From Candidatus Vogelbacteria bacterium RIFOXYD1_FULL_51_18 (GTDB lineage Bacteria; Patescibacteriota; Minisyncoccia; Phycocordibacterales; UBA9988), in assembly GCA_001823095.1 (NCBI GenBank), contig MHTL01000011.1, positions 1 to 60,992 of the forward strand: DNA of 60,992 nucleotides, written 5' to 3'. Made by a program: the position numbers and the translations under genes. Of this stretch, positions 9,704-60,471 are shown one piece after another. Positions within the stretch are counted from its first letter, which is position 1. Each line of letters starts with the position of its first letter. The notes beneath the pieces are model-generated. The model searched no databases. It was not told the DNA's origin and saw only the letters and a program-made list of their open reading frames with translations.

Positions 9704-10862
9704 TCCCATCACCGGTTACGCACTCTTTCTCGCAGGGCTCGTGTTTTTTGCTGCGCTCTTATTTGTGGCGCCATGGTCCCAGTCTGCGCTAGTCTATTCC
9801 ACTGATGACGGATTTGCTATTGCCAGTACTACCCCGCCCACTCCACCAGAACCTCCCAAACCAAAACATATTGAAACACCGGAGTCCGTGAAGGCAATTT
9901 ACATGTCCAGCTGGGTGGCGGGCACGCCCTCCGTGCGCGAGGGGCTCATCAAACTTGCCGAAGAGACCGAGATCAATGCCATCATGATTGATGTGAAGGA
10001 CTATACCGGCCGCATCTCCTTTGCCGTCAACGACCCCGCGCTTGCGCGCTACGGCTCCGCCGACCCCACGCGCATCAAAGATATTGACGCGCTCATTGCG
10101 GAGCTTCACGAAAAAAATATTTACATAATTGCGCGTATTGCCGTTTTCCAAGACGACTTCCTTGCGCGCAAGCGGCCCGACCTTGCCGTCAAGCGCGCTT
10201 CCACAGGCAACATCTGGCTGGATCATAAAAAGATCGCGTGGCTGGATACCAGCGCTCCCGAGGTCTGGGATTACAGTTTTTTGGTTGCGCAGGAAGCGGT
10301 GAAGCGCGGCTTTGACGAAATAAATTTGGACTACATCCGCTTCCCCTCCGATGGAGCAGTCTCCGACACAAGCTATCCCTACTACCGCCCGAGCGAAGAG
10401 AGCAAGGCAGAAGCTGTGCGGCGCTACTACGCCTACATCGGGGAGCGCAAGGAGGAATTAGGCGTGCCCGTCTCGGGAGACCTCTTTGGCATGGTGCTCA
10501 CCGAGACCTCTGACATGAACATCGGGCAAATTTTGGAAAACGGTTTGGAATATTTCGACTATGTGGCGCCGATGATCTACCCCTCGCATTACCCGGACGG
10601 CTTTAATGGGTGGAAGAAGCCGGCAACCGTGCCCTACGAGCTTGCCAAGTATGTGCTGGATGCGGGCGTCGCGCGATCCGTTGCGGCGAGCACGACACCG
10701 GAAAAAATTCGCCCATGGCTGCAGGACTTTGACCTCGGCGCCGACTACACGGCGGAGATGGTGCGCGCGCAGATCAAGGCTACCTATGATGCAGGGCTTG
10801 ACTCATGGATGCTCTGGGCTCCCTCAAACAAATACACCCGCGCCGCCTTGCTGGAGGAGTGA
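9684..10862 (+). CDS. Putative glycoside hydrolase (DUF4015-like), N-terminal membrane anchor
   Basis: VKAIYMSSW, EINAIMIDVKDYTG, GFDEINLDYIRFP, DYVAPMIYPSHY, RPWLQDF. Confidence 0.85.
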   Translation: MKRRLINPITGYALFLAGLVFFAALLFVAPWSQSALVYSTDDGFAIASTTPPTPPEPPKPKHIETPESVKAIYMSSWVAGTPSVREGLIKLAEETEINAIMIDVKDYTGRISFAVNDPALARYGSADPTRIKDIDALIAELHEKNIYIIARIAVFQDDFLARKRPDLAVKRASTGNIWLDHKKIAWLDTSAPEVWDYSFLVAQEAVKRGFDEINLDYIRFPSDGAVSDTSYPYYRPSEESKAEAVRRYYAYIGERKEELGVPVSGDLFGMVLTETSDMNIGQILENGLEYFDYVAPMIYPSHYPDGFNGWKKPATVPYELAKYVLDAGVARSVAASTTPEKIRPWLQDFDLGADYTAEMVRAQIKATYDAGLDSWMLWAPSNKYTRAALLEE

Positions 10863-10903
10863 TGGAAGTGAGACTCGCCGCGGCGAGTCTCACTTCCATC
10901 ACT
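10858..10903. repeat. 46-bp perfect palindrome, GGAAGT...ACTTCC family
   Basis: AGTGATGGAAGTGAGACTCGCCG|CGGCGAGTCTCACTTCCATCACT at the gene stop. Confidence 0.9.
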
Positions 10904-10973
10904 TGCGCGTGCACGCTACACTTGGCGCATGGCAAAAGAACCTCTGGCAGCGCGGCTGCGGCCGAAAGGTGGC

Positions 10974-11002
10974 TTGACTTTGTATTGCAGGTTTGCTATA
11001 AT
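10974..11002 (+). promoter_or_regulatory. sigma70-type promoter for the 206-aa gene
   Basis: TTGACT-17 nt-TATAAT; leader has GATACCTTGAAAA (11010-22), a hairpin and AAGGAG. Confidence 0.8.
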
Positions 11003-11072
11003 GGTAAAAGATACCTTGAAAAGGCCCTAATTCGCGACGGCGAAGGGGTAAAAAACCAAGTAGAAGGAGCAG

Positions 11073-11693
11073 ATGATGAAAACCATCAGTCATGGTCAAA
11101 CCCGCGCTCTTGTTGGGTCGTTTCTCATTGATACGCCGTGGGACGACATCGAAGTCCCCGATGATGATGACTTTGTTCAATCTTTCATCCAACTTCGGCC
11201 AGAAGAACGCGGGAGAAAGTTTGCTGATTTCATCAGAGACAGGTTCCAGATTGTTTCCACTGCGGTTAAACATGCGGTTAAACACCTCATCAATCTCGAC
11301 ACCATCCCCTTCACCCCCAACGGCTGGAGTGTAGAGGAACACCAGGAGGGAGGAATGCTTGAGTGGAACTCCAACAAAGTCTCCCTCCACCTCTCTCCCA
11401 ACCAAGAAGGGAACATATACATTAAGGGCAACGAGCTCCGCACAGAGCTCAAGGGCAAACCTGTCTTGAATGCAAACGTTCTAGACTACCTCCTTATCCA
11501 CCAAGACCTCATCCCCGAGGAGTGGAAAGACCAGAGCATCTTCTTCTGGGGCACCATCTACTGCGGCCTGGACGGCACCCTGTTTGTCCGTTACCTCTAC
11601 TGGCACGGCGGCTGGTGGCACTGGGACTTCCTCTGGCTTGGCAGCGATTGGTTCTGCCACCGCCCGGCTCTCGTTCTCGCAAGTGGGCAATGA
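11073..11693 (+). CDS. Probable DGR-type variable protein (CLec-like C-terminus)
   Basis: C-terminus FWGTIY...LFVRYLYWHGGWWHWDFLWLGSDWFCHRPALVLAS; 11561-11680 has only 10 A in 120 nt and variable codons are NNC. Confidence 0.65.
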   Translation: MMKTISHGQTRALVGSFLIDTPWDDIEVPDDDDFVQSFIQLRPEERGRKFADFIRDRFQIVSTAVKHAVKHLINLDTIPFTPNGWSVEEHQEGGMLEWNSNKVSLHLSPNQEGNIYIKGNELRTELKGKPVLNANVLDYLLIHQDLIPEEWKDQSIFFWGTIYCGLDGTLFVRYLYWHGGWWHWDFLWLGSDWFCHRPALVLASGQ

Positions 11694-11746
11694 GAGCTTA
11701 GTACCTTACGCTTCAGCCCTTAACCCTGAACACCTAGATCTTTAGA

Positions 11747-11786
11747 CCCCGTCCGCGACACGCATGTGTTGAGATGGGGCTTTTTG
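11747..11786 (+). terminator. GC hairpin with T-tract after the 206-aa gene
   Basis: CCCCGTC...GATGGGG-CTTTTT with internal ACAC-GCAT-GTGT. Confidence 0.6.
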
Positions 11787-11872
11787 TTTGCATTTTACAT
11801 CGTCATTTTAATTTTTGATATTTCATTTTTGATTTAATATAGCCCGCAATTATGGTATAATACGCGCCAACT

Positions 11873-13618
11873 ATGGCCGACCTCCTTAAACAGGGTATGG
11901 CATATCTTGCCGAGACCGACTTTCGCGGCGCTAAGACGCGTTTTGGCATTAAAAACAGCGACCGCGCGCGGCATGTCTACGTCATCGGCAAGACCGGCAT
12001 GGGCAAGAGCACCTTGCTGGAGAACATGGCAATCCAAGATATGGCCAACGGCGAGGGGCTCGGCTTCATAGACCCTCACGGCGGCACTGCGGAAAAACTC
12101 TTGGATTACATCCCCGAGGAGCGCACCAAGGATGTGATTTACTTTGCCCCCTACGACCTTGACTACCCCATCTCCTTCAACGTGATGGAGGACGTGGGCA
12201 AGGACCAGCGCTACCTTGTGGCAAACGGGCTGATGTCCTCGTTCAAAAAAATCTGGCCCGACGTATGGAGCGCGCGCATGGAGTACATCCTCAACAACAC
12301 TCTCCTCGCGCTCCTTGAATACCCCGACTCAACCCTCCTCGGCGTCAATCGCATGTTGAGCGACAAAAATTATCGCACACAGGTAGTCAATAATATTTCA
12401 GACCCATCTGTGAAGGCTTTTTGGCTAGATGAGTTTGCTAAGTATAACGAGCGCTACATGCAGGAAGCGGGCGACGCGATTAAAAACAAAATCGGTCAGT
12501 TCACCAGTAATCCCCTCATCAGAAATATTATTGGCCAGCCCAAGTCCAGCTTTGACATCCGCGAGGTGATGGACGGGAAGAAGATTCTCATCATGAACCT
12601 CTCCAAGGGCCGCGTGGGCGAGCAGAACGCCTTTCTCCTCGGCGGCATGCTCATCACCAAGATTTATCTCGCCGCCATGAGCCGCGCCAATGCTACGACG
12701 GCGACACTCCAAGCGCTTCCATCCTTCTACCTCTTTGTAGACGAGTTCCAGTCCTTCGTCAACGACTCTTTTGCCGACATCCTTGCCGAGGCGCGCAAAT
12801 ACAAGCTCAATCTCACCATCGCGCACCAATATATTGACCAGATGCCCGAGACGGTGCAGAGCGCGGTCTTTGGCAATGTGGGCACGACCATCGCCTTCCG
12901 CGTGGGTCCCTTTGATGCCGAGAAGCTGGAAAAGATTTTCAGCCCTAAGTTTACTGAAGAGGATCTCGTTAATCTCGGCTTTGCCCAGATTTACCTCACT
13001 CTTATGATAGATGGCGTAGGCTCGCCGTCCTTCTCTGCGACCACGCTTGCGCCGATAGAAAATGCCATGCAGGAGCTCCACGCGGGACTCAAAGAGCAAA
13101 TCATCGCTTCCTCTCGCGCGCAGTACGCGCATCCGCGCGAGGAGGTGGAGAAGGCGATTACCGAGTGGCACAAGGTGGCGCTCTCCTCAATAGAGAAGGC
13201 GGATAGAGCGGGAAGGGTCAATCCGCCGGCCGGCGGACAAGGGCCAAGTAAAAAGTATCATACAGGAAGTCGGACTTCGGGGGCGGCGGAAGTCCGACTT
13301 CCGTTCCAGAAGCGCGCGACTCTCATTAAGGAGGCGGCGCAGGACCGCACGCGAGAGCTCTCCCTAGAAGCGCTCGTTGCGGCGAAGAACAAGGAGACAG
13401 TGAAAGCAACGCCACAGGCAAAAGAAGATCTCAAGTCTTTTTTGCAAGACGTTATTAAGTCAGTCCCCAAAGAAAAGAAAGAAGAAGTGCCAAGTATCAA
13501 GGATCAAGCAGACCAGAGGTCGGACTTCAAGGGCGGCGGAAGTCCGACTTCTGATTCCCAAGAAATTCCAGAAGACGAGCTCCGGCATATGCTTGAGGTA
13601 CCTAAAAGAAACGGGTAG
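11873..13618 (+). CDS. VirD4/TraG/TrwB-like (T4CP/HerA superfamily) ATPase
   Basis: Walker A IGKTGMGKS, Walker B LFVDEFQ, EARKYKL, HQYIDQ; low-complexity C-terminal tail. Confidence 0.9.
   Translation: MADLLKQGMAYLAETDFRGAKTRFGIKNSDRARHVYVIGKTGMGKSTLLENMAIQDMANGEGLGFIDPHGGTAEKLLDYIPEERTKDVIYFAPYDLDYPISFNVMEDVGKDQRYLVANGLMSSFKKIWPDVWSARMEYILNNTLLALLEYPDSTLLGVNRMLSDKNYRTQVVNNISDPSVKAFWLDEFAKYNERYMQEAGDAIKNKIGQFTSNPLIRNIIGQPKSSFDIREVMDGKKILIMNLSKGRVGEQNAFLLGGMLITKIYLAAMSRANATTATLQALPSFYLFVDEFQSFVNDSFADILAEARKYKLNLTIAHQYIDQMPETVQSAVFGNVGTTIAFRVGPFDAEKLEKIFSPKFTEEDLVNLGFAQIYLTLMIDGVGSPSFSATTLAPIENAMQELHAGLKEQIIASSRAQYAHPREEVEKAITEWHKVALSSIEKADRAGRVNPPAGGQGPSKKYHTGSRTSGAAEVRLPFQKRATLIKEAAQDRTRELSLEALVAAKNKETVKATPQAKEDLKSFLQDVIKSVPKEKKEEVPSIKDQADQRSDFKGGGSPTSDSQEIPEDELRHMLEVPKRNG
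13265..13302. repeat. GGAAGT-family palindrome inside the ATPase CDS (copy 1)
   Basis: GGAAGTCGGACTTC-10 nt-GAAGTCCGACTTCC, read as GSRTSGAAEVRLP. Confidence 0.85.
13514..13553. repeat. GGAAGT-family palindrome inside the ATPase CDS (copy 2, different frame)
   Basis: CAGAGGTCGGACTTC-10 nt-GAAGTCCGACTTCTG, read as QRSDFKGGGSPTS. Confidence 0.85.
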
Positions 13619-13627
13619 AGTGCCTGT

Positions 13628-14755
13628 ATGAGAGAGTTCCGCACGGCGCTAATTTATACCACTGCCTATCTGCCCTATATTGGCGGAGCGGAGTTGGCGC
13701 TCAAAGAGATTACCGAGCGTTGGCACAATGTGCGGGTGCTTATCGTAACGGCGCGGCTCTCGCGCACAGTGCCGCAAAGGGAGCGCATCGGCCGCGCCGA
13801 AGTCATCCGCATTGGCATCGGCATCCCACGCGTTGACAAGCTCCTCCTTGCAGTATTCGGCAAGAGGGCGGGAGAGAGGGCGCTCAAAGGGAGCGAACCA
13901 GACTGCGTATGGGCAATCATGGCAAGCTATGGCGCGCTCGCCGCGCTTGCCTACAAACGCGCGCACCCGCGTGTGTCCTTCATACTCACCTTGCAGGAAG
14001 GGGATACGCATGAGCACATTGCGCGCCGAGCGCGCTTCCTCGGCAAGCGCTTTAGAGAAATTTTTGAGCGCGCTGACGCTATTCAGGCAATTTCGCAATA
14101 CCTTGCGGACTGGGCGCGCGATATGGGCGCGACGGCTCCAATCACAGTTATCCCTAATGGAGTAGATATAGAGAAATTCAGATTTCGAAGTTGGAAGTCG
14201 GATTCGCCACAGGCGAATCCGACTTCCAAGAGTATAGAACTCATTACCACGTCTCGGCTGGTGAAGAAGAATGCAGTAGACGACATTATCCGCGCGCTCG
14301 CGCACTTGCCGGAGACAGTAACACTTGAGGTCGTAGGGGACGGAGTAGAACGAAATAATTTGAAAGTACTCACACTCTCTCTCAACCTTTCTTCCCGTGT
14401 TCATTTTGCTGGCGCTATTGCTCCTGAAGAAATTCCCTTAGCGCTCGCCCGTGCGGATATTTTTGTTCGCCCCTCACTCTCTGAAGGTTTAGGAAATTCT
14501 TTTTTGGAAGCGTTTGCCGCGGGTCTCCCCGTGATTGCCACACCTGTTGGTGGTATCCCTGATTTTCTCCGTGATGGCGAAACGGGCTGGTTTGCCGAGG
14601 TGAGGAACCCCGAGTCCATTGCCGCCTGCGTGCGCTATATTATTAATCCTGCACACGAGGAGCATGTGACACACGTTACTGCTGCCGCACGAGCACTTAT
14701 TGAGAAAGATTATACATGGGAATCTGTTATGGTGCGGATGGGAGCTATCCTGTAA
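13628..14755 (+). CDS. GT4 glycosyltransferase
   Basis: AYLPYIGGAE, IPNGVD, TTSRLVKKN, FVRPSLSEGLGNSFLEAFAAGLPVIAT. Confidence 0.95.
   Translation: MREFRTALIYTTAYLPYIGGAELALKEITERWHNVRVLIVTARLSRTVPQRERIGRAEVIRIGIGIPRVDKLLLAVFGKRAGERALKGSEPDCVWAIMASYGALAALAYKRAHPRVSFILTLQEGDTHEHIARRARFLGKRFREIFERADAIQAISQYLADWARDMGATAPITVIPNGVDIEKFRFRSWKSDSPQANPTSKSIELITTSRLVKKNAVDDIIRALAHLPETVTLEVVGDGVERNNLKVLTLSLNLSSRVHFAGAIAPEEIPLALARADIFVRPSLSEGLGNSFLEAFAAGLPVIATPVGGIPDFLRDGETGWFAEVRNPESIAACVRYIINPAHEEHVTHVTAAARALIEKDYTWESVMVRMGAIL
14191..14229. repeat. 39-bp GGAAGT-family palindrome in-frame in the GT4 interdomain linker
   Basis: TTGGAAGTCGGATTCGCC-ACA-GGCGAATCCGACTTCCAA (perfect 18-bp stem; 39 nt, a multiple of 3). 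Confidence 0.9.
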
Positions 14756-14761
14756 AACTAT

Positions 14762-15856
14762 ATGACAGGAGAAAATCGTCCACATATTGCGATCATCGGA
14801 GGAGGATTCTTTGGAGCTACCGTCGCTTATGTTCTCGCGGAAGCGGGGTATCCGGTCACCCTGTTTGAGAAACACGATGATTTACTTCAGGCCGCATCAG
14901 GAATTAATCAATTCCGTCTCCATCGTGGGTACCATTATCCACGAAGTGCTGAAACTGCGCGAGAGTGTGCTGAAGCAGAACAAATCTTTTTAGAAGAATT
15001 TCCCGGACTTGTCTCGTTTGAGAACGATCATTACTATTGTATTGCGCGTGAAGGAAGCAAGATTTCTCCTGAGGATTTTCGTGCTTTTTGCGATGCGGTT
15101 GGTCTTGAGTATGAGGAGGCACACTCCCCTGTGGTTAATCGGGAAGAGATACTCTGGAGCGTTAAGGTACGTGAAGGACTCGTCCGTATTGATGCGGCAC
15201 GTTGCTATCTACGAGAGCGTTTAGAACATTTAGGAGTTGCTCTTCGTTTCAATACGCTAGCGACGGAAGAACTTCTTCGCCCGTTTTCAAAAGTAGTGGT
15301 ATGTACTTATGCATCAAACAACCAGGTGCTTCGTACGTTATTACACGACGAGCATATTCAAGAGTATCAGTACGAACTGTGTGAAAAGATCGTGTTGGAA
15401 CTTCCCACGGAGTTTCAGCATCAGAGTGTTGTTATTATGGACGGGCCTTTTATGTGTGTTGACCCCTTTTGTGACACTCCCTACCATCTGATGGGGAATG
15501 TAGTACACGCAATCCACAGATCCTCTGTAGGCGCGTATCCAGAAATTCCCACTCACCTTGCCCAATTCATTAATAGGGGATTAGTAAACAAACCGCCGCA
15601 CTCTAATTTTCGGCACTTTATTAAATCAGCATCACAGTATTTTCCTCACGTGTACGCCGCACGTCATGTGGGTTCTATGTATACCATTCGTACGGTGCTC
15701 CCCAATCTTGATCACTCCGATGCTCGCCCGACGATTGTTGAGCCCTTAAGTGAGCGTGTGATCCGTGTGTTCTCTGGCAAGATTGGTAACTGTGTACTTG
15801 CGGCATGGCAGGTGCGAAGACTCATTACTAAGTCTGAGGGAAAGCATCCGCAATAA
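14762..15856 (+). CDS. FAD-dependent oxidoreductase
   Basis: IAIIGGGFFG...FEK; ASGINQFRLHRGYHYPRS; FSGKI near C-terminus. Confidence 0.9.
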   Translation: MTGENRPHIAIIGGGFFGATVAYVLAEAGYPVTLFEKHDDLLQAASGINQFRLHRGYHYPRSAETARECAEAEQIFLEEFPGLVSFENDHYYCIAREGSKISPEDFRAFCDAVGLEYEEAHSPVVNREEILWSVKVREGLVRIDAARCYLRERLEHLGVALRFNTLATEELLRPFSKVVVCTYASNNQVLRTLLHDEHIQEYQYELCEKIVLELPTEFQHQSVVIMDGPFMCVDPFCDTPYHLMGNVVHAIHRSSVGAYPEIPTHLAQFINRGLVNKPPHSNFRHFIKSASQYFPHVYAARHVGSMYTIRTVLPNLDHSDARPTIVEPLSERVIRVFSGKIGNCVLAAWQVRRLITKSEGKHPQ

Positions 15857-16724
15857 TTTTTGTTACGAGCGTTGCTTGTGCACCGTTTGTGATTGGCGCT
15901 TTTCGACAGTGAAGTGACTCAATAAAAGCATCACACTCTCTATCTAGAGGTACTGTCGTGCTTTCAGCAATGATCGTTGGTTCTTTTTCTTTTTCCACAC
16001 GCAAAAGACGATTTCCTTCCCATAGGTAGGTCTGCGTCTGTGTCGTAATGGTAATCGTATGTTTGGTGACAGAAGAAAGACGATTGACGAGCCCGAATGC
16101 TTTTGCGCCGCTTGGATATTCTAGTGAAAAAGTATACGCATCATGAGTGCCGAGAGTTGAAATAAGGGGATGTATCTGTGCAACCGTGGGCGTGCCGAGG
16201 AGATCGTTTGCTAAAGACACCTCATGCACGGCGAGATTCCAAATCCCGTCCTCGTGGAAGGATCCGTATTTTTCCCACGTAAAAAGGACGTTCTGTATCT
16301 GTTCCTGTGCAATTTCTGTTTTTAATTTTTGCCATAGCTCGTGATAAAGGTATATGTAGCCAACCATCAGGATTTTATTTTTTTGTTGCGCAAGTTCTGT
16401 GAGCGCCATCGCTTCGACTGGATCTTGGCAGAGTGGTTTCTCTACAAAAACGTCCTTCTCATGCTCCAGCGCTACACGAACAAGAGATGAGTGCGTGTGA
16501 ATGGGCGTTGCAATACACACGGCAGAGATGTCAACATTCTCCATGACTTCATCCACGTTGTGAGTCACGGGAATGTGCGGGTACTCGCTTTTAAGCCATT
16601 CGTCCGTCGCCGAGTCTCCGGTATGACAAATAAGCGATATCTCCGCCCGGACAGAGAATGTTTTAAGGAGGTTCTTCCCCCAACGGCCAACTCCGATGAT
16701 TGCGATTTTGTCCTTACTGTGCAT
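15828..16724 (-). CDS. Gfo/Idh/MocA-family oxidoreductase
   Basis: IAIIGVGRWG, IATPIHTH, VFVEKPL, MVGY, NLAVHE. Confidence 0.92.
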   Translation of the reverse strand: MHSKDKIAIIGVGRWGKNLLKTFSVRAEISLICHTGDSATDEWLKSEYPHIPVTHNVDEVMENVDISAVCIATPIHTHSSLVRVALEHEKDVFVEKPLCQDPVEAMALTELAQQKNKILMVGYIYLYHELWQKLKTEIAQEQIQNVLFTWEKYGSFHEDGIWNLAVHEVSLANDLLGTPTVAQIHPLISTLGTHDAYTFSLEYPSGAKAFGLVNRLSSVTKHTITITTQTQTYLWEGNRLLRVEKEKEPTIIAESTTVPLDRECDAFIESLHCRKAPITNGAQATLVTKIIADAFPQT

Positions 16725-16733
16725 AATGAATTT

Positions 16734-17861
16734 GTGAAGAAGATACTTTTAGCAACGGGTATATTCTACCCTGATGTTGGCGGGCCCGCAATACATGCTC
16801 GACATATTGCTGACGAGATTGTCAAGCATGGGGGACGAGTCCGTGTGATTACCTACGGAGGAGCTTTTCCTGTTGGTACGGTGTTACTCCCGTATCCGGT
16901 GACGCGTATCCCGCTCTCACTATGGGCGCCGCTTAGATGGGCTCTCTATGCGCTCGCTGCGCTTAAGGATTCTCTTTGGGCGGAGGTGATTTACGCGTTT
17001 GATTTGAGCGCGGCTGGTGTACCTGCCGCGTGCGCAGCCACACTTACGGGCAAAAAGTTTTTTATACGCATCGGTGGAGATCCCCTCTGGGAACGTGTTG
17101 TTGAACATGGCAAGCGCTTCCTCTCTCTTGACGAGTACTACGCACACGGCTACTACCTCACTGATAGACCTTTTCTCTTTCGTCTTATACGCTGGGTGCT
17201 CTCTCGCACTGATTATGTGATTACCTACGCACAAATGCTTGCTGATCTCTACACAAAGTATTTTAACGTGCCACCTGAGCACATTCATATTATTCCTAAC
17301 CCGTTCCCCGCTGTTCCTTCTGGAACTAAAACACTTACTGACGCACCGCTTACTTTGTATGCAGGACGTTTTGTAAAATATAAGAATCTTCCCTTTGTTC
17401 TCCGAGTATTTAGGCGTATCCATACTGCACATCCCGCCAGTCGTCTTATGCTCGTTGGTTCTGGCCCAGAATTTACATCAGTGAAGGAATACGCCACGAC
17501 GCTTGCGCTCGGTGATGCGCTCCAGATTCTCCCCGCGGTACCTCATGAGCAGTTAAGAGAATTCCAAGCGCGCGCGTCATTGGCGCTTGCACCCGCGCTG
17601 ACGGAATTTAGTCCTAATTTTGCACTAGAGGCGCTTGCCACCGGTACGCCAATCCTCATTAGCCGAGGAAATGGTCTTACCGTGCAGCTCCCGGAGGAGT
17701 GTCTCTTTGATCCTAGTAAGGAAGATGAGTTGTACGAACGTTGGAATGCTCTCCTTGATCCTGTTGTGTACGCGAAAGTTGTGCAAGAGGTCATCGCTTC
17801 CATCCCGCACTATACGTGGACGGAAGTAGAGGCCGCTCACGCTGTACTCCTCGGACTATGA
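16734..17861 (+). CDS. GT4 glycosyltransferase
   Basis: GTG start KKILLATGIFYPDVGGPA; YAGRFVKYKN; EFSPNFALEALATGTP. Confidence 0.92.
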   Translation: MKKILLATGIFYPDVGGPAIHARHIADEIVKHGGRVRVITYGGAFPVGTVLLPYPVTRIPLSLWAPLRWALYALAALKDSLWAEVIYAFDLSAAGVPAACAATLTGKKFFIRIGGDPLWERVVEHGKRFLSLDEYYAHGYYLTDRPFLFRLIRWVLSRTDYVITYAQMLADLYTKYFNVPPEHIHIIPNPFPAVPSGTKTLTDAPLTLYAGRFVKYKNLPFVLRVFRRIHTAHPASRLMLVGSGPEFTSVKEYATTLALGDALQILPAVPHEQLREFQARASLALAPALTEFSPNFALEALATGTPILISRGNGLTVQLPEECLFDPSKEDELYERWNALLDPVVYAKVVQEVIASIPHYTWTEVEAAHAVLLGL

Positions 17862-23415: not shown

Positions 23416-24130
23416 TCTCTCAATCGTACTCCCCGCGTATAAGGAGAAGGAAAATCTTGCTGTTTTGGTACCTCAGATTGAGGCAGAGTTTCAAGGGGAT
23501 TCCTTTGAGATCATCGTCGTAGATGATCACTCTTGTGACGGCACGCGAGAACTAGTGGACAAGTTACATGAGCAGTACCACAACGTGCGGCTCCTTGAGC
23601 GGCAGGGGCTCTTGGGTGTTGGCTCTGCTCTTCGCGATGGCTATAACACGGCAAACGGGGAGTACATCCTCTCATCTGACGCGGACCTCTCCTTTGCGGC
23701 GGACGATATGCGTGCACTGTATGAAAAGATTTGCACTGATTACGACATGGTGCTCGGATACAAAATCTCCGGAAAAAGAAAAGGAAGTACAGACGTTGCA
23801 CGTCGAACACTTCATGGGTGGGCAGAGGAGTACCTCACGAGCCCATTTTCCAATTGGATTATCCGTCTTGTGAGCGGTGTTAGACTCAAGAACTACAACA
23901 CTGACTTCAGAATCATCCGCGCATCTATCTGGAAGCGCATCCGCACCGTTGAAGACCGGCAATTCTTTCTCTTTGAGACGATTTACCGTACCGTTGAGGC
24001 AGGTGGACGCATTACCGAGATCCCGGTAGTCTTTTGCCCGCGCAAATTCGGCGAGTCAAAAGTCAGTTTTTTCAAGCAAGCGCCACGTTATCTTCTCAAA
24101 CTTGTCCGTTTGCGCTCTTCCTCATCTTGA
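23405..24130 (+). CDS. GT2 polyprenol-phosphate glycosyltransferase (DPM1/GtrB-like)
   Basis: SIVLPAYKE, IVVDDHSCDGT, SSDADLS, EIPVVF...RKFGESK. Confidence 0.92.
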   Translation: MTVSLSIVLPAYKEKENLAVLVPQIEAEFQGDSFEIIVVDDHSCDGTRELVDKLHEQYHNVRLLERQGLLGVGSALRDGYNTANGEYILSSDADLSFAADDMRALYEKICTDYDMVLGYKISGKRKGSTDVARRTLHGWAEEYLTSPFSNWIIRLVSGVRLKNYNTDFRIIRASIWKRIRTVEDRQFFLFETIYRTVEAGGRITEIPVVFCPRKFGESKVSFFKQAPRYLLKLVRLRSSSS

Positions 24131-24161
24131 CATCCCGAGGCGCCTCTCTATACTGAAGTCC

Positions 24162-34101: not shown

Positions 34102-34710
34102 ATGACCGATGTTCATGAAGAGGTGCAGTTGCTAGCTCAAAAAATCAAGGCAGTCATCTTTGATGTTGATGGAGTCGTATTCCCCGCGGAGGTAACCGAA
34201 GGGTGGTACGACGCGGAGGGTAAACCTATTCGCGTAAAAACGCGGAGTTACACGGATGGTCAAGGCGTCTCCTTGCTCCGTGCAATCCATTTGCCCGTTG
34301 CCTTCATTACAAACGAGCATGGTGACCATGCGCGTGCAATCTCTGGAGTCGTTGAGAAGTGGAACACCCTCCCCTCCTCTACAAAAGCTCCTGGGGATGG
34401 AGGGTGGCCGTCTGTCCACCTTTACACTGGTATGGGTGGGGAGAAAAAGGTGGTCGCCGCCAAACAATTTCTGCAAAAGGTTGGTCTTAGATCGCTCCAA
34501 GATTGTGCAATGATGGGAGATGATCTCGTTGATGTACCTCTACTACGTCTCGTCTCCCTTCGTGCAGCACCAGCTCAGGCAGAAGACGTGGTAAAAAACT
34601 TGTGCCATTTTGTTGCTAAGCGAGATGGTGGTAAGGGAGCAATTCGTGACCTAGCTAACTTTATTCTTGATGCACGGGGTATAGACCCAACAACATTGCC
34701 CCCAAACTAA
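34102..34710 (+). CDS. KdsC-like HAD phosphatase, paralogue 1
   Basis: FDVDGV, DGQG, EKK, MGDDLVD, GGKGAIRD. Confidence 0.9.
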   Translation: MTDVHEEVQLLAQKIKAVIFDVDGVVFPAEVTEGWYDAEGKPIRVKTRSYTDGQGVSLLRAIHLPVAFITNEHGDHARAISGVVEKWNTLPSSTKAPGDGGWPSVHLYTGMGGEKKVVAAKQFLQKVGLRSLQDCAMMGDDLVDVPLLRLVSLRAAPAQAEDVVKNLCHFVAKRDGGKGAIRDLANFILDARGIDPTTLPPN

Positions 34711-48613: not shown

Positions 48614-49153
48614 ATGACATTTACTTTTAGAACCCTCTCTCTTTCCGGGCTTACTCGTATAGAGCCACACGTGTATCCTGATGTGCGTGGAGTATTTATA
48701 GAGTTATATAAACATTCTGATTTTACACGTGCAGGAATCAACGAACATTTTGTGCAAGAAAACTATTCATTTTCTAAAAAAGGAGTTCTTCGAGGTCTCC
48801 ATTATCAATCGGGTCCTCTGGCACAAGGAAAGTTGGTGCGTTGTCTCCATGGAGAGATATTTGATATTGCGGCTGATGTTACGCAAGACTCTCCCACCTA
48901 TGGAAAGTGGGAAGGAGTCACTCTTTCTTCAGACAATCGCTACCAACTCTATATTCCTGCTGGTTACGCACACGGTTTTTGTGTTTTGAGCGATAGCGCC
49001 GAAGTTGTTTATCTATGCACAGAAGAGTACAATCCTTCAATTGAACGAGGGGTCCGTTGGGACGACCCTCTGCTTGATATCACCTGGCCTATTAGTAATC
49101 CTATTCTTTCTGATCGCGATCAGCGCCATCCCTTACTCAATGCCCGATTCTAA
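48614..49153 (+). CDS. rmlC: dTDP-4-dehydrorhamnose 3,5-epimerase
   Basis: DVRGVF, QENYSFS.KGVLRGLHYQ, QGKLVRC, YAHGF, LSDRD. Confidence 0.95.
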   Translation: MTFTFRTLSLSGLTRIEPHVYPDVRGVFIELYKHSDFTRAGINEHFVQENYSFSKKGVLRGLHYQSGPLAQGKLVRCLHGEIFDIAADVTQDSPTYGKWEGVTLSSDNRYQLYIPAGYAHGFCVLSDSAEVVYLCTEEYNPSIERGVRWDDPLLDITWPISNPILSDRDQRHPLLNARF

Positions 49154-50782: not shown

Positions 50783-50788
50783 CTCTCT

Positions 50789-51862: not shown

Positions 51863-51867
51863 ATTAT

Positions 51868-54069: not shown

Positions 54070-54076
54070 TCTACCC

Positions 54077-54179
54077 AGTAGGTTCAATGAGTAAGTGCAA
54101 CACTTTGAGATAATCAGAGTGTATGCAATACAAACACTTTTCGGTTGAGGAGCGTGAGAAGATACAGGAAATGCTCTGG
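54077..54179 (+). mobile_element. IS30-family left-end remnant (IR plus first 19 transposase codons)
   Basis: AGTAGGTTCAATGAGTAAGTGCAACA (54077-102) resembles the IS30 IR as I recall it; ATG 54123 reads MQYKHFSVEEREKIQEMLW, then similarity stops. Confidence 0.7.
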
Positions 54180-54268
54180 CACGCCGCCCGCATCCTTCTC
54201 GCGTCACTCGGAATCCTTTTGGCTTTTTTGAAAAAGACAAGTATTATGAGCGTACGCGCGCGGAAAAC

Positions 54269-56479
54269 ATGAAAATTAACACACTAGTGCGCTTTGGGAT
54301 ATATGGAGGATTATTCCTCGTGCCTTTTATTCCGCTTGTAGTGAGCTCGTCGCTCTTCTTCCCCTATATTACGGCAAAGAACGTTATATTCCGGGTTCTG
54401 GTGGAGCTCATTACTCTCTTGTGGGTGATAGTGGCCCTGCGCGAGCCGAAGTATCGCCCCAGACGCTCCTGGGTGCTTTACGCAGTGCTCGCAGTGAGTA
54501 CGGCTCTTACCATTGCAACAGTGACAGGAATTAATCCATACCGCAGTTTCTGGTCCAACTATGAGCGGATGGACGGACTGGTTACCAATCTGCATCTTCT
54601 TCTCTATTTTTTGGTGATAGGAAGCGTCCTGCTTACCGAGCATCTCTGGACATGGCTCCTGCGCACCTATGTTGGCGCAAGCGTCATCATGAGCTTCATC
54701 GCGCTCGCGCAGTATGCAGAGGGACTCTCTAAAGGAATTTCGGTGCGCTTGGATGCGCAACTGGGCAACGCGACGTACCTCGCGTTTTACATGTACTTTC
54801 ACATCTTCTTGGCATCGCTTCTTTTAGTGCGGCAATGGAAGTCGCTTGGCTTCCGCATTCTCTACATCTCACTCATCGCCATTGAACTCGCGGTTCTGTA
54901 TCTCACGGCGACCCGTGGCGCTCTCCTGGGACTCCTTGTGGCGATAGCAACTATTGCGGCGCTCACTTCGTATGTGTACTGGGAAGAGCTCCGAATACGG
55001 AACTATGCGCTTACCGCGCTTGGGGTGGTGTGCGCGTTTGTTATTATCTTCTATGGGTTGAAAGATTCCAACTTCATCCAGGGAAGCCCGGTGCTCTCTC
55101 GATTTGCGAACATTTCTCCGACTGAAACGACGACTGAATCGCGCTTCATTATTTGGGGGATGGCGCTTAAGGGATTTACGGAGCATCCGCTCTTCGGCTG
55201 GGGGCCGGAGAATTTCAATATCCTCTTCAACAAATACTATGAGCCGCACCTCTGGCGGCAGGAACCGTGGTTTGACCGCTCGCACAACGTCTTTCTTGAT
55301 TGGCTCGTCTCCGCGGGGCTCGTGGGTCTCGCGAGCTACCTTGCGCTCTATGTCGCTTCACTCTTTTATCTCTGGAAAAAATCTTCCCGCGAACGGATAT
55401 TCCCTGCCCATGAGGCAATCCTTTTCTCCGGCCTCTTGGCTGGATACCTATTTCAGAACATCTTCGTATTTGATAACATCGTGAGCTACATGCTCTTCTT
55501 CACCATTCTCGCGTATGTGCATGTGCGAGTTACTGCGGATGAGCATCCAATAGGAAGTAGCATCCGCCCCCATCAGGGGCTTGTGGCGGCTGGAGCAATC
55601 CTTGCGACGCTCGCGTTTGGAGCGTCGCTGTATGTGGCGAACATTAAACCAGTACTCGCAAATCGCACTCTCATCCGAGGCATTATACCGCCGGTACAGG
55701 GCGAGAAAGCAGAAGACTTCCTCAAGTCTCGCAATGATGAATTTCTCCGCGCTATCAGCTACAACACCTTCGGCACTACTGAAGCAAGAGAACAGTACTT
55801 GCAGTTTGCCGGAAGGGTCATTGGCACACAAACAATCCCAGAAGCTACCCGCATAGCAATTGGTTCAAGCGCAGTATCAGAGATGAAGAAGCAAATTACT
55901 GAATATCCAGATGATGCGCGCTACCGAATGTTCCTCGGGTCCTTTTTAAGTGCGGTAGGCGATGCGCCGGGGGCAATCGCAGAGTTTCAAAAAGCGCTTG
56001 AGCTCTCTCCGGGAAAACAGCAAATCCTGCTGGAGCTCGCGGCGGCCTATGAGCGCGCTGGCAAAAAAGTCGAGAGCAGAGAGACAATCCGCACAGCGTT
56101 TGAGCTTGACCCGACAAATCCGGAAATTGCCAAAACCCACGCCTACCTCCTCCTGTTGGAGGGAAAGCGGGCGGAAGCGGAACAGGTTCTCACGCCTCTC
56201 TATGGCAGTATTGCCGCGCCGGATCCGCGCTTTGTTAATTACTTCCTTGAGCGGAAAGAGTACCAGAATCTGCTTATCTCCATGGAGGGCGTCGCAGAGG
56301 CAAATCCCTCTGACATACAACTTCAGTATTCGCTCGCGGCGGCGTACCTGCAGGTAGGCGAGCGCGCGCAGTCTGTCACCCAACTTAAAAAAATCGGTGA
56401 ACAATTTCCTCAGCAAGCAACGCAAACGCGTGCGCTTATCGGAGAAATTGAAGCGGGACGCAATCCGATACAAGAGTAG
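54269..56479 (+). CDS. O-antigen-ligase-family membrane protein with TPR-like C-terminus, paralogue 2
   Basis: FWSNYERMDG, RLDAQLGNATY, TATRGA, GWGPENF, FDRSHN. Confidence 0.92.
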   Translation: MKINTLVRFGIYGGLFLVPFIPLVVSSSLFFPYITAKNVIFRVLVELITLLWVIVALREPKYRPRRSWVLYAVLAVSTALTIATVTGINPYRSFWSNYERMDGLVTNLHLLLYFLVIGSVLLTEHLWTWLLRTYVGASVIMSFIALAQYAEGLSKGISVRLDAQLGNATYLAFYMYFHIFLASLLLVRQWKSLGFRILYISLIAIELAVLYLTATRGALLGLLVAIATIAALTSYVYWEELRIRNYALTALGVVCAFVIIFYGLKDSNFIQGSPVLSRFANISPTETTTESRFIIWGMALKGFTEHPLFGWGPENFNILFNKYYEPHLWRQEPWFDRSHNVFLDWLVSAGLVGLASYLALYVASLFYLWKKSSRERIFPAHEAILFSGLLAGYLFQNIFVFDNIVSYMLFFTILAYVHVRVTADEHPIGSSIRPHQGLVAAGAILATLAFGASLYVANIKPVLANRTLIRGIIPPVQGEKAEDFLKSRNDEFLRAISYNTFGTTEAREQYLQFAGRVIGTQTIPEATRIAIGSSAVSEMKKQITEYPDDARYRMFLGSFLSAVGDAPGAIAEFQKALELSPGKQQILLELAAAYERAGKKVESRETIRTAFELDPTNPEIAKTHAYLLLLEGKRAEAEQVLTPLYGSIAAPDPRFVNYFLERKEYQNLLISMEGVAEANPSDIQLQYSLAAAYLQVGERAQSVTQLKKIGEQFPQQATQTRALIGEIEAGRNPIQE

Positions 56480-56513
56480 CTTGATTTTTTTCCGTACCCG
56501 TGTATACTAGAGG

Positions 56514-56706
56514 ATGTGAGTGCTTCTGTCCGCCTCGGCGGAGCGGATGCGCAACGAATATCTGCGAAAGGTCCGTTCGCTTCGGCGAGACGGGTTTTTC
56601 GTTTTTCTGCTATACTGGGCGTATCCGCGCGCTCGCGGCTGGTGACAGCACTCACATAAGATATTTGTTGGAGTTCGCATTCACCAGCCACGAGCGCGCA
56701 GAAAAT
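56514..56706 (+). ncRNA. Candidate structured non-coding RNA(s), family unrecognised
   Basis: TTGATT-16-TATACT upstream; hairpins incl. C(UUCG)G plus U-run; 19-bp stem 56627-45/56681-99 whose loop is complementary to 56514-24, 56547-51 and 56552-63. Confidence 0.45.
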
Positions 56707-56729
56707 TTTTTTCAAAAAATATTTTTTAG

Positions 56730-56738
56730 TTATCCACA
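56730..56738 (+). promoter_or_regulatory. Single perfect DnaA box
   Basis: TTATCCACA in an AT-rich tract upstream of a TATAAT promoter. Confidence 0.45.
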
Positions 56739-56846
56739 CATATCGCAAAAAAATTCTGTTTTGTAACTTTTTTGCACTATAATAGTGTAAGCACTCGCGG
56801 GAATGGTCGAACCGCAAATTCTTACTAACGAGTTTCAAACAAAATT

Positions 56847-56930
56847 ATGGCAAAGAAGAGAAAGACAGCCAAGAAGACGACAAAGAAGGCTGCCAAGAAA
56901 AAGAGCACAAAGCGCTCAAAGAAGAGGTAG
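56847..56930 (+). CDS. 27-aa Lys/Arg-rich peptide (histone H1-like)
   Basis: MAKKRKTAKKTTKKAAKKKSTKRSKKR*; own TATAAT promoter and terminator; below the ORF-track cutoff. Confidence 0.7.
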   Translation: MAKKRKTAKKTTKKAAKKKSTKRSKKR

Positions 56931-56945
56931 TATCTTTCTACCACT

Positions 56946-57002
56946 AAAATAAAATCTCCGTTCACCTCCGCCAGCCGGTGGAGCGGACGGAGATTTTATT
57001 TT
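56946..57002. terminator. Terminator after the basic peptide
   Basis: AAAATAAAATCTCCG/CGGAGATTTTATTTT. Confidence 0.8.
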
Positions 57003-57031
57003 CTGCCGACAAGTGCTAGAATGTGCACCCA

Positions 57032-59518
57032 ATGGCCTTGCTTGAACAGATATTCGGGAGCAAATCAACGCGTGCGGTGAAATCACTTGCGCCGATTGTG
57101 GCTGAAATAAACAGAGTGGAAGCGGAACTTGCGTCTTTGTCTCCGGGCGAACTCTTGGAACGGATGGCGCTCCTCAAGCAGAAACTGTCCGAGGGCTCCT
57201 CGCTGGATGAGCTTGTGGTGCCCGCCTTTGCGCTCGTGCGCGAGGCAAGCAAGCGCACGCTTGGACAGCGGCATTTTGACGTCCAACTTATGGGTGGCAT
57301 CGTTATGCATCAGGGCGGCATTGCCGAGATGAAGACGGGTGAGGGCAAGACGCTTGTGGCAACGCTCCCCGCGTGCTTAAACGCTCTCACCGGGAAAGGC
57401 GCGCACATCGTAACGGTGAATGACTACCTTGCCCGCCGCGATGCGGTGTGGATGGGGCAGATATATCATGCGCTCGGCTTGAGCGTCGGTGTGGTCACGC
57501 AAGCGGGCTCCTACCGCTACACAGCGCCTCCCAGCGCCGATGACGCCGAGAGGGATACAAGCGGCGCTTACCATATTGAACACGAGTTCCTCGTTGCCTG
57601 CACTAAGCGCGAAGCGTACGCCTGCGACGTCACCTACGGCACTAACAACGAGTACGGCTTTGACTACCTGCGCGATAATATCGCCTTCAGGCCCGAGGAT
57701 CTGGCCCAGCGCGAATACGCATACGCAATCGTGGACGAGATTGACTCCATCCTCATTGACGAAGCGCGAACGCCCCTAATCATCTCGGCGCCCTCGCAGG
57801 AATCGGAGGCGCTCTACCATACCTTTGCGCGCATCGCGACTACGCTTACTCTCGGTGAGGATTACACGGTTGATGAGAAGGCAAAGGCCATCCTCGTGAC
57901 CGACCAAGGCATCTCTCGTGCGGAAAAACTTCTCGGTGTGGGGAATATTTACACCGAACACGGCGTGAAGTACGTCCACCATCTGGAGACTGCCATCCGC
58001 GCCAAGGCGCTCTACGAGCGGGATAGGGAGTATGTGGTCGGAAACGACGGCGTGGTAATCGTTGATGAGTTTACCGGGCGTCTCCAGCCCGGCCGGCGCT
58101 GGTCGGAGGGACTCCACCAGGCGATTGAAGCGAAGGAGGGAGTCGCGGTCCAGCGCGAGAGTCGCACCGTGGCCTCCATTACCTTCCAGAATTACTTCAG
58201 AATGTATACAAAGCTCTCCGGCATGACCGGCACGGCTGCAACAAGCGCGGAAGAGTTCCGAAAGGTCTACGGCTTGGAGGTGCTCTCCATTCCATCAAAT
58301 GCGAAGATCGCTCGCGTTGACCTCCCTGACCAGATTTTTAAAAACGAGCGCGGCAAGGTGACCGCGGTGGTGCGCCGCGTACGCGAACTGCATGAGAAGG
58401 GTCAGCCCGTGCTCGTTGGCTCAATTTCTATAGAGAAAAATGAAATCTTTTCCAGCTACCTCAATAAAGAAGGAATCCCGCACCAGGTCCTCAATGCCAA
58501 GAACCACGAACGAGAGGGTGAGATTATCGCAGACGCGGGACGCAAGGGGAGTGTGGTGATTGCAACCAATATGGCCGGGCGCGGCGTTGATATTAAGCTT
58601 GGCGGCGCGCAGGCAACTAAAGAAGAGTATGAAGAGGTGAAAGCGCTCGGGGGGCTCTTTGTGCTCGGCACCGAGCGTCATGAAGCGCGGCGTATAGACA
58701 ACCAGCTGCGCGGCCGCGCAGGGCGCCAAGGAGACCCCGGCGCAACGCAGTTCTTTATTTCCATGGAGGACGAGCTCGCGCGCGTCTTCGGTCCCGGGCG
58801 CGAGCGCATCAAGGCAATCTATGACCGCTTTGGCGTTGCGGAAGATGAGCCGATGGAAGCAAGGATGATTACGCGGATTATAGAAAACGCGCAGAACAAA
58901 ATTGAGGGACTCAACTTTGACGCCCGCAAGCACGTGCTGGAGTACGACGACGTGATGAACCACCAGCGCGGCATCATGTACGTGAGGCGACGTAAGCTCC
59001 TCATTGGTAATCAAGAGTACATGGCTGAATTTGCGGACCGTCTCAAGGACCATGCGTCTACGACGGGGGAAGCAAGCGAGATAGCTTCGGTTGTAGAGAC
59101 TAAAGAGCAGGAGCTGGGAAGGGAGATGTTTTTGCAGGCAGTGCGCCAGTTGGCGCTCCAGACGCTGGATACCTTGTGGATGGAGCATCTGGAGGCGATG
59201 GATTACCTGCGCGGCTCGGTGAACCTGCGCGCCTATGGCCAGCGCGACCCCTTAGTAGAGTATAAAAAAGAGGGCCTGCGGCTCTATAAGGATTTGGAGT
59301 TCTCGCTTTTTGATACCATTTTCAAACACCTTGAACGTGTTGCTCCCGCCGCCGTGGCATTCACTCCCGTTATTGATCTCTCACAAATCAAGGAGGGCGG
59401 TCCCGAATCTGCACAGGTTTCTCCCAATGATCCTGCAAGTAGCGTGCCAAAAGTCGGTAGGAATGATCCCTGCCCGTGCGGAAGCGGGAAGAAGTACAAA
59501 AAGTGTCATGGGAAATAA
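57032..59518 (+). CDS. secA: Preprotein translocase ATPase SecA
   Basis: [71 protein letters not shown]. Confidence 0.99.
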
Positions 59519-59740
59519 CATTAAAGAAGTGGTACTGCCCGTGGTGCGGGACAGAAAATACTTACAAGAAAAATTATGACAGATGAAAAACATACTTACA
59601 AACTGGAGTATATAGGGATGTTTTGAAACGATGTCGGGACGAACTTAAAAATGTTCTTGAGAGCTGGCTCTTGCTTACAATACAGAGTAGAGAAAAAGTT
59701 CCTGGGTTGCGTCTCTCTCCACATTTTGTATAATGACCCC

Positions 59741-60445
59741 ATGAACGCTGAAAAACAGAATTTCCTCATCCCGGCGGCTATCATTATTGCGGGAGCGCTC
59801 ATTGCGGCAGGTATCTACTTTGGCGGCGTAAACAGGGGGAGCACCGGTCCTACTACTGATGGGAGACCGGATCCACTCGAGCTCGCCAAGAATGTTGCGC
59901 CCGTATCAAATACCGACCACGTGCAGGGCTCCGCGCAGGCGCAAGTTACCATCATAGAGTTCTCCGACTTGGAATGCCCCTTCTGCAAGAGCTTCCACCA
60001 GACCATGCGGCAGGTGATGGATGAGTACGGCGCGGACGGGCGCGTGCGCTGGGTGTACCGCCACTTCCCGCTCGTTGGGCTCCATCAGAAAGCCTCCAAA
60101 GAAGCAGAAGCTGCCGAATGTGCGGGAGAGTTGGGAGGTAATGAGGTATTTTGGAAATACATCACTAAGATTTTTGAAGTTACGCCTTCAAATGACGGGC
60201 TTGACCCGGCAGAGCTCCCAAAGATCGCCGCAGGTTTAGGGCTGGATAAGCAGAAGTTTGAAGCCTGCCTTGCGAGCGGAAGGCACGCGGCGCTCGTTGA
60301 GGCGCAGGCGCAGGATGCGCAGAACGCGGGAGGGACGGGGACGCCCTTCAGTGTCATCATCACCGCAAAAGGAGAATACATCCCACTCAACGGAGCCTAC
60401 GGACTCCCTGAAATGAAGGTGTATCTGGACAAGGCTTTGGAGTAG
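59741..60445 (+). CDS. DsbA-family thioredoxin-fold protein with N-terminal anchor
   Basis: IIEFSDLECPFC, YRHFPL, GTP. Confidence 0.93.
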   Translation: MNAEKQNFLIPAAIIIAGALIAAGIYFGGVNRGSTGPTTDGRPDPLELAKNVAPVSNTDHVQGSAQAQVTIIEFSDLECPFCKSFHQTMRQVMDEYGADGRVRWVYRHFPLVGLHQKASKEAEAAECAGELGGNEVFWKYITKIFEVTPSNDGLDPAELPKIAAGLGLDKQKFEACLASGRHAALVEAQAQDAQNAGGTGTPFSVIITAKGEYIPLNGAYGLPEMKVYLDKALE

Positions 60446-60448
60446 TAA

Positions 60449-60471
60449 TGATGGAAGTCTCACTTCCATCA
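60449..60471. repeat. Internally deleted GGAAGT-family palindrome after the DsbA stop
   Basis: TGATGGAAGT-CTC-ACTTCCATCA, matching both ends of the 10858 element. Confidence 0.8.

Follow-up and report, generated by a model that had tools for sequence, protein, structure and literature searches.

Palindromes inside genes of a 0.63-Mb Patescibacteria genome are probably REP/REPIN-type elements processed by RAYT-like transposases

The DNA analysed here (the window; 60,992 nt) is contig C11 of the 634-kb, 20-contig genome of Candidatus Vogelbacteria bacterium RIFOXYD1_FULL_51_18 (G000), an ultra-small groundwater bacterium of the candidate phyla radiation (CPR, Patescibacteria) whose genome is ~90% coding. 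It carries five GGAAGT...ACTTCC palindromes, at stop codons and within protein-coding genes. Our analysis indicates that these palindromes are likely to be elements of the repetitive extragenic palindrome (REP) and REPIN type, which are probably processed in trans by single-copy Y1 (HUH) transposases that resemble REP-associated tyrosine transposases (RAYTs) and are encoded elsewhere in the genome. What we describe is a known kind of system, REP/REPIN-RAYT, in a new intragenic and miniature CPR variant. Our reading builds on four direct observations: the existence and size of the family, hairpins that flank RAYT genes and co-vary with them across relatives, empty sites in orthologues, and turnover of the element interiors.

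Searching the window for GGAAGT-N3-33-ACTTCC returned five matches (copies 1 to 5, Table 1) where 0.17 were expected, and none of 100 shuffles got to five. As single-stranded DNA, all five fold better than shuffles (z = -5 to -11). They are the five palindromes that an earlier note on this DNA had listed, and its description of them is borne out: all lie where it placed them, two are at stop codons, the two in the tail of an ATPase gene are in different frames, and the stem differences (GAGA/TCTC versus CGGA/TCCG) are real compensating changes in the two arms. Copy 1 holds the TGA stop (10860-62) of a DUF4015 gene, and copy 5 begins 3 nt past the TAG stop at 60443-45. Copy 2, in frame in the C-terminal tail of the ATPase, encodes GSRTSGAAEVRLP; copy 3, in the same tail, encodes RSDFKGGGSPTSD in a register one base off that of copy 2 (offset 250 nt). 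Copy 4 encodes the 13 residues WKSDSPQANPTSK in the linker that joins the two domains of a GT4 glycosyltransferase.

The earlier note's proposal of a repeat family hinged on further copies, and these occur across the genome (contigs of G000 are given as C1, C2 and so on, with the position after a colon). Censuses of the entire genome, by exact pattern and by hairpin, gave ~60 hairpin elements; the GGAAGT super-family has ~25 members, and three to four sister hairpin families stand beside it. The basic unit is a 15-23-nt hairpin, GGAAGT-NNN-ACTTCC, and the elements overall measure 15-46 nt. The forms include A singlets (TGATGGAAGT-CTC/GAG-ACTTCCATCA; nine copies), F3 doublets (GGAAGTCGGACTTC-N10-GAAGTCCGACTTCC; 10 units), F1/F2 long perfect palindromes with a YCGCC-N2-3-GGCGR centre (11-13 copies, 11 of them by the exact F1/F2 core pattern), family B (TTGACTG[AG]AGTC-N-GACT[TC]CAGTCAA; 16 copies), family C (TGTCCAAC[AC]TC-SGA-KGTTGGACA; 10 copies) and family D, which consists of AACAC-CGA-GTGTT doublets. 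Shuffles yield 0-0.1 per pattern for A, F3, B, C and the F1/F2 core. The inverted, REPIN-like F3 doublets comprise copies 2 and 3 of the window as well as C10:6807 (near-identical to copy 2), C6:5793, C10:5766 and C13:25607. Identical 34-mers are found at unlinked loci; the 34-nt core of copy 1 recurs identically at C1:7620. The short singlets lie mostly at gene ends, and no common sequence flanks the long forms. Units are open in four to six of the six frames, most F3 doublets in all six, and the encoded peptides are short and polar (GS[RP]TS, EV[GR]LP, KSDF). These peptides arise from the same DNA in different registers and orientations, and we therefore rejected a repeat motif at the protein level. 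Many unrelated palindromes of the genome share the F1/F2 centre T(C/T)CGCC-GC-GGCG(G/A)A (for example C12:45557, C20:14746, C10:13821, C2:46648 and C6:11016), some of them terminator-like with A/T-rich feet.

A genome search with the Pfam profile PF01797 (Y1_Tnp) returned three genes, RAYT-A, RAYT-B and RAYT-C, with scores of 32.6-38.9 bits (cut-off 23 bits), all of them off the window contig; hmmscan of RAYT-A against PF01797 gave 31.6 bits. Hairpins bracket each gene within 0-50 nt, and each gene has its own hairpin family, which is the arrangement that the earlier note had in mind when it pointed to a HUH or RAYT transposase flanked by the repeat. The RAYT-A hairpin, TGATGGAAGT-CTC-ACTTCCATCA, is identical to window copy 5 and to the outer arms (14 nt each) of copy 1. 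Inside the reading frames, the hairpins of RAYT-A and RAYT-B occupy the same two protein positions; those of RAYT-A encode LMEVSLPS and FDGSETSIT, and both peptides map to low-confidence loops of the AlphaFold model. The sole NCBIfam match of the RAYT proteins is the REP-associated tyrosine transposase (REP_Tyr_transpos, NF047646). Invariant in 14 homologues are H76 and H78 of the HUH motif, Y136, I137, N140 and P141 (Y136-I-x-x-N-P), and downstream S155 and S156, which agrees with the RAYT signature of a catalytic Tyr in Y-I/V-x-x-N-P with WSS after it. Searched with Foldseek, the AlphaFold RAYT model (pLDDT 75.6) has as its best Protein Data Bank (PDB) match 4ER8_A (TM 0.69, root-mean-square deviation 3.4 Å), which is E. 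coli TnpA-REP with a REP hairpin; the IS608 and ISDra2 transposases rank next. All three genes are syntenic with a second genome of the genus, G001, which we analysed whole, at 68-78% identity, like their neighbours, and are therefore vertically inherited single-copy genes rather than hopping insertion sequences. The three PF01797 genes are strong candidates for the mobiliser. RAYT-A is also flanked by an 80-nt direct repeat (C17:22787-22870 and 23619-23700) made up of the A hairpin and the 3' end of the adjacent gene on the minus strand, which points to a past duplication or recombination at the hairpin.

Hairpin and transposase change together across relatives. Of 41 genomes in the order, 26 have a RAYT homologue. 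Almost all of the homologues retrieved there stand between hairpins whose sequence is particular to the homologue, in many cases with two more copies inside the gene. Between G000 and G001, the hairpins of the B orthologues compensate (TGAAGTC/GACTTCA versus TGGAGTC/GACTCCA), as do those of the C orthologues (TGTCCAACATC versus TGTTCAACCTC). A wider survey, in which one genome per species was scanned, gave at least 541 relatives, mostly from Patescibacteria. Among the best 80 of these at least 541 loci, a palindrome with a stem of at least 8 bp stands at one end in 62, matching palindromes stand at both ends in 39, and a matching internal copy is present in 30. Loci L102, L103, L104, L106, L109, L111 and L116 use GGAAGTCSGACTTCC or CGAAGTCGGACTTCG. 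As GGAAGTCSGACTTCC is the unit of window copies 2-4, these loci show it to be a genuine cognate hairpin of RAYTs among Patescibacteria at large.

Orthologues allow the in-gene copies to be compared with sites that are empty. In codon alignments of G001 against G000, clean gaps of 24-36 nt mark at least six in-gene sites (Table 1), at which G001 has neither the peptide nor the DNA; empty sites in orthologues were a check that the earlier note had proposed. No target-site duplication or conserved target is evident in these alignments. Copy 2 is missing from five orthologues (G001, G002, G003, G033 and G006) and, by this sequence comparison, is unique to the species of G000. Copy 3 has a degenerate orthologous copy in G001 only (QRSGFEGSRSPTSD), G002 and G003 being without the palindrome. 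At the GT4 linker, the four relatives differ: G000 has an F2 element, G001 an F3-like doublet, G002 nothing and G003 two small tandem palindromes; G002 thus carries neither the GT4 nor the ATPase-tail elements. The DUF4015 orthologue of G001 (82% identity) ends at the same residue, and at the post-stop position of copy 1 it is followed by a hairpin of another family, CGTTCAACCTACGAGGTTGAACG. A separate observation concerns C3:11752-11776, where a 25-nt RAYT-C hairpin, TTGTCCAACATCGGATGTTGGACAA, lies inside a well-conserved protein of 406 amino acids (aa) whose length equals that in G001; the peptides at the site are LVQHRMLDN (G000) and LTEHRKLGG (G001), which, from the sequence, looks like overwriting rather than insertion.

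The interiors of the elements turn over both between species and between strains. G001 has F3-like doublets where G000 has F1/F2 forms at C1:7620, at C14:2572 and in the GT4 linker, and at C1:7620 both arms differ compensatingly between the genomes (GA/TC versus CG/CG). The F1/F2 architecture was found eight times in G000 and not once in 40 relatives. Strain variation was read from metagenome contigs (Logan) of runs X15, X17, X18 and X20 for ~12 elements. In X18 and X20 the GT4 site is GGAAGTCGGACCTCGGGGGCGGCAGAAGTCCGACTTCC, an F3 doublet one codon longer than F2, on a 1.1-kb contig (window 13530-14634) that is 99.8% identical, with two single-nucleotide differences besides the palindrome interior. 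Since this doublet is found in near-identical co-occurring strains, the elements are still changing. An alternative allele of C10:13604 shows a flip of the centre from AC to GT together with a 2-nt change in the arms, within a 60-nt tract with nine differences, and both alleles coexist in two samples. Change of the element interior is therefore recent.

Some further features of the strain contigs were noted near the elements. X15 and X20 carry seven substitutions in 25 nt at L092:2862-2886 (C10:5861-5885), ~60 nt downstream of the C10:5766 doublet, on contigs that are otherwise near-identical. In X15, a 27-nt in-frame deletion polymorphism at L094:12941 (C17:~34440-34466) affects the low-complexity tail of a protein of 458 aa; the C17:34550 element is ~85 nt away. 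In several runs, short-read contigs stop or branch precisely at palindromes (window 10850-10970 and other elements), and loose contig ends lead to paralogues, for example from copy 1 to the C1:7620 flanks and from C10:6807 to the flanks at window 13235-64. Metagenome assemblies are therefore broken up by the repeats. An apparent empty site for copy 1 in X18, X19 and X20, where 10852 is joined to 10932 (79 nt skipped), was not used as evidence because one side has 20 nt, letters between are unknown, and full-length contigs bearing the palindrome dominate.

In the mechanism that we favour, the hairpin would occur as singlets at gene ends (copy 5) and as inverted doublets with a ~10-nt spacer (copies 2 and 3), which may be regarded as miniature REPINs. 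The long palindromes (copies 1 and 4) would be species-specific derivatives whose interior has been symmetrised around a CGCC-N2-3-GGCG centre. By analogy with E. coli TnpA-REP and IS608 TnpA, the RAYT would bind the hairpin in single-stranded DNA and cut and rejoin at its foot; its fold and the gene-hairpin architecture point to such a catalytic role. Arm-to-arm templating, that is, quasi-palindrome correction, or conversion from copy to copy would then give rise to the compensating arm changes, which are best explained by templating between arms or copies, slow compensatory selection being less likely. In a genome so densely coding, the copies that survive would be those landing in loops, linkers and tails with a length divisible by three.

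Several findings depart from classical REPs or weigh against this reading. Whereas REPs are extragenic, 17 of the 20 long forms sit in frame inside open reading frames whose G001 homology spans the element, a share near the coding density of the genome. No GTAG/CGTC tag was found at the 5' foot of the hairpins, the A elements being flanked as (T/A)TTGAT-GGAAGT.... The RAYT proteins score 34.6-49.1 bits with NF047646, under its equivalog cut-off of 80 bits, and are by sequence distant relatives of the curated RAYT family, not equivalogs. In three respects, namely location outside genes, a GTAG/CGTC foot and the score with the curated equivalog, the classical description of REPs does not apply. 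No chain of the PDB was matched by sequence, either with a single RAYT or with the 14-sequence profile. No RAYT of this genome is bracketed by an exact F3, F1 or F2 sequence, so the link of these forms to a RAYT rests on the common arms and core and on relatives elsewhere; the RAYT-B orthologue of G001 has an F3-type unit ~80 nt upstream, but its immediate flank is B-type. G002 (same genus, 96% complete), in which no RAYT homologue was detected, keeps 11 GAAGT-NNN-ACTTC motifs, compared with 18-30 in RAYT-bearing members of the family. C3:11752, C14:51481, C10:13604 and, against G002, the copy-3 region align to the orthologue without a gap. Simple insertion therefore does not fit all sites, and there is also replacement, or else insertion with a later deletion that compensates for it. 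The claim of the earlier note that the element inserts into genes thus holds for the empty sites and gives way where a copy is an equal-length replacement that added nothing. Finally, no presence/absence polymorphism was seen in ~12 elements (on C10 (5), C17 (6) and the window (4)) of runs X15, X17, X18 and X20, whose Logan contigs lose rare variants, and no evidence of excision or insertion was obtained at the read level. The description of the element as active is accordingly upheld for conversion of the interiors between strains, and not for new insertion.

Taken further, these elements might represent a phylum-wide, undescribed RAYT-hairpin branch in Patescibacteria, in which coding-compatible modules (four to six of six frames open, length divisible by three) spread into reading frames, among them that of the RAYT itself at two fixed loops, and doublets are overwritten in place by newer variants through templating. 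We regard this extension as possible but doubtful.

A first alternative would do without a transposase. The long forms would spread and change by template switching and gene conversion, and the RAYTs would serve the short singlets or nothing. The turnover described above speaks for this view in part: the replacement of F3 by F2 at the GT4 site is a multi-base change confined to the interior, with new halves that are exact complements, and the centre flip at C10:13604 is what inversion through a hairpin typically yields. At several in-gene sites the copy replaces sequence without a change in length, the CGCC-N2-3-GGCG centre is common to unrelated terminator-like palindromes, and the motifs of G002 are kept without a RAYT. 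However, identical 34-mers at unlinked loci and clean additions of 24-36 nt at no fewer than six sites are beyond template switching, and the bracketing of RAYTs by cognate hairpins across Patescibacteria argues for a relation of enzyme and substrate. We consider it unlikely that template switching accounts for the long forms by itself; it is best seen as a complementary step that follows insertion.

A second alternative, which we hold to be quite improbable, takes the Y1 genes and their hairpins for ordinary IS200/IS605-type insertion sequences, with the dispersed palindromes as end-derived remnants (miniature inverted-repeat or palindrome-associated transposable elements, MITE/PATE). It could draw on the layout of hairpin, Y1 gene and hairpin, on the direct repeat around RAYT-A, and on a fold that matches the IS608 and ISDra2 TnpA proteins too. 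Against it, every Y1 gene occurs once and has its particular hairpin, all three are syntenic with the sister species and as similar there as the genome is on average, TnpB partners were not seen beside them, NCBIfam gives the RAYT model only and the best fold match is TnpA-REP, and the hairpins to the left and right of a gene do not differ as left and right ends would, but are identical. Least probable of all, and very much so, is that the hairpins are not selfish repeats but cis elements selected by the host (domesticated Y1 sites, signals of RNA stability or termination, or of replication or recombination), as might be thought from the preference of singlets for positions right after stop codons or at gene starts, the different hairpin families at the same post-stop position in two species and the persistence of RAYT-internal hairpins at conserved positions over deep divergence, because in-gene copies are found in housekeeping proteins that are unrelated to one another, whatever the frame or orientation, orthologues without them show no compensation, no T-run directly follows copy 1 (downstream TGCGCGTGCACGC) or copy 5 (downstream ATGAGCCATTTTTTT, with a T-run beginning 9 nt off), and an Rfam gathering scan of the window returned 16S rRNA and two tRNAs only and no family for the palindromes.

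The features are collected in Table 1. The ATPase tail also contains the 16-nt palindrome at 13222, which precedes copy 2 by 28 nt and falls within a 12-residue segment specific to G000, VNPPAGGQGPSK, that five orthologues are without. Just downstream of copy 5, at window 60496-60541, is a long imperfect palindrome centred on CACGATCGT, with perfect relatives at C8:19344, C14:49616, C1:17632 and C14:29323. Window 1-1677 is a 16S rRNA gene by Rfam, the window starting inside the gene, and contains an inverted repeat (151-166/207-222).

Table 1. Palindromes, host genes, candidate transposase genes and in-gene sites with gaps in G001. Positions without a contig are those of the window.
Feature	Position	Strand	Description
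Copy 1, F1 long form	10858-10903		46-nt perfect palindrome, AGTGATGGAAGTGAGACTCGCC-GC-GGCGAGTCTCACTTCCATCACT
Copy 2, F3 doublet (mini-REPIN-like)	13265-13302		GGAAGTCGGACTTC-GGGGGCGGCG-GAAGTCCGACTTCC; 14-bp arms, 10-nt loop
Copy 3, second F3 doublet, same ATPase tail	13514-13553		15-bp arms, one G.T pair, 10-nt loop
Copy 4, F2 long form	14191-14229		TTGGAAGTCGGATTCGCC-ACA-GGCGAATCCGACTTCCAA; 39-nt perfect palindrome, 18-bp arms, 3-nt loop
Copy 5, A-type REP singlet	60449-60471		TGATGGAAGTCTCACTTCCATCA; 23 nt, 10-bp arms
RAYT-A	C17:22982-23620		A hairpin just upstream and over stop codon (identical to copy 5); two in-frame internal copies
RAYT-B	C12:34159-34805		B hairpin at the same four positions as in RAYT-A
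RAYT-C	C17:10596-11390	minus	C hairpin on both sides
Gap in G001	C9:17283		clean, 30 nt
Gap in G001	C6:5793		clean, 30 nt
Gap in G001	C10:17913		clean, 27 nt in true host frame
Gap in G001	C4:8465		clean, 24 nt
Gap in G001	C10:6807		clean, 30 nt
Gap in G001	C10:5766		clean, 30 nt
Gap in G001	C17:34550		surrounding region itself variable
Host gene 1, DUF4015 putative glycosyl hydrolase	9684-10862	+	stop codon within F1 palindrome
Host gene 2, TraG/VirD4-like P-loop ATPase	11873-13618	+	poorly conserved C-terminal tail with two F3 doublets
Host gene 3, GT4 glycosyltransferase	13628-14755	+	palindrome in linker joining two Rossmann-like domains
Perfect palindrome, 16 nt	13222-13237		TCCGCCGGCCGGCGGA; CGCC/GGCG module, as in F1/F2 centres

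If the palindromes are REP/REPIN-type elements as we propose, the logic of enzyme plus hairpin extends to a streamlined 0.63-Mb CPR genome, in which the repeats persist by being readable as protein. It would also supply a concrete candidate mobiliser for in-frame palindromes like those of Rickettsia. The natural pairs of alleles, doublet versus perfect palindrome in near-identical strains, lend themselves to studies of symmetrisation in vivo. Short lineage-specific peptide insertions of this systematic kind could confound the annotation and alignment of CPR proteins, and the breaking of short-read assemblies at the hairpins bears on the quality of metagenome-assembled genomes. Should the phylum-wide extension be true, the elements would be a continuing source of peptide diversity in linkers and tails of genomes nearly without intergenic space, and a RAYT gene that carries its own substrates would form a heritable unit of enzyme and substrate.

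Among known systems, REP/REPIN elements are defined as extragenic and have been studied best in Proteobacteria. Like them, the G000 elements are short hairpin repeats in tens of copies with inverted doublets, accompanied by a single-copy, vertically inherited Y1/HUH gene with cognate hairpins that co-vary with the RAYT lineage, and the closest structure is TnpA-REP. In contrast to the proteobacterial systems, namely E. coli TnpA-REP/YafM (4ER8) and the Pseudomonas REPINs (Nunvar 2010, PMC2817692; Bertels & Rainey 2011, PMC3116915), the elements are much smaller, at 15-46 nt, also occupy two conserved positions within the reading frame of the RAYT, lack the tag, go with RAYT proteins of 35-49 bits against a cut-off of 80, and reside in a Patescibacteria genome of 0.63 Mb. 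The earlier note had likened them to Rickettsia palindromic elements, an analogy that fits the in-frame outcome only, REP/REPIN-RAYT being the right comparison. The Rickettsia elements, reportedly described by Ogata et al. in 2000, are said to measure ~100-150 nt and to be restricted to Rickettsia. To our knowledge, neither a mobiliser nor a mechanism has been described for them. Both kinds place palindromes in frame in protein genes, as short peptides at tolerated surface or linker positions; the G000 elements differ in being three to five times shorter than the length given for those of Rickettsia, in having a candidate enzyme and in occurring as gene-end singlets too. With IS200/IS605 elements (IS608, ISDra2) they share the Y1/HUH fold, a presumed recognition of hairpins on single-stranded DNA and the lack of a visible target-site duplication, whereas the Y1 genes of G000 are single-copy and syntenic, show no TnpB partner beside them and carry identical hairpins on both sides. 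Quasi-palindrome correction by template switching, reportedly known from Ripley (1982) and from E. coli thyA hotspots studied in the Lovett laboratory, resembles our findings in the multi-base templating from arm to arm, the conversion of imperfect into perfect palindromes and the centre flips; it is, however, a mutational process, whereas here we deal with a dispersed repeat family and a species-wide derived sub-family. The small dispersed repeats of cyanobacteria, reportedly described by Elhai et al. in 2008, are by description similar in being palindromic, ~20-30 nt long, sometimes nested and sometimes within genes, and differ in belonging to another host phylum; we know of no enzyme associated with them. 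The literature that we searched contained no report tying REP, RAYT or REPIN to CPR/Patescibacteria, and a 2018 survey of the Y1 family does not mention REP/RAYT in Patescibacteria. The present analysis contributes long forms within genes, orthologous sites that are empty, a symmetrised sub-family specific to the species, conversion at strain level and the link of F3 to RAYTs elsewhere.

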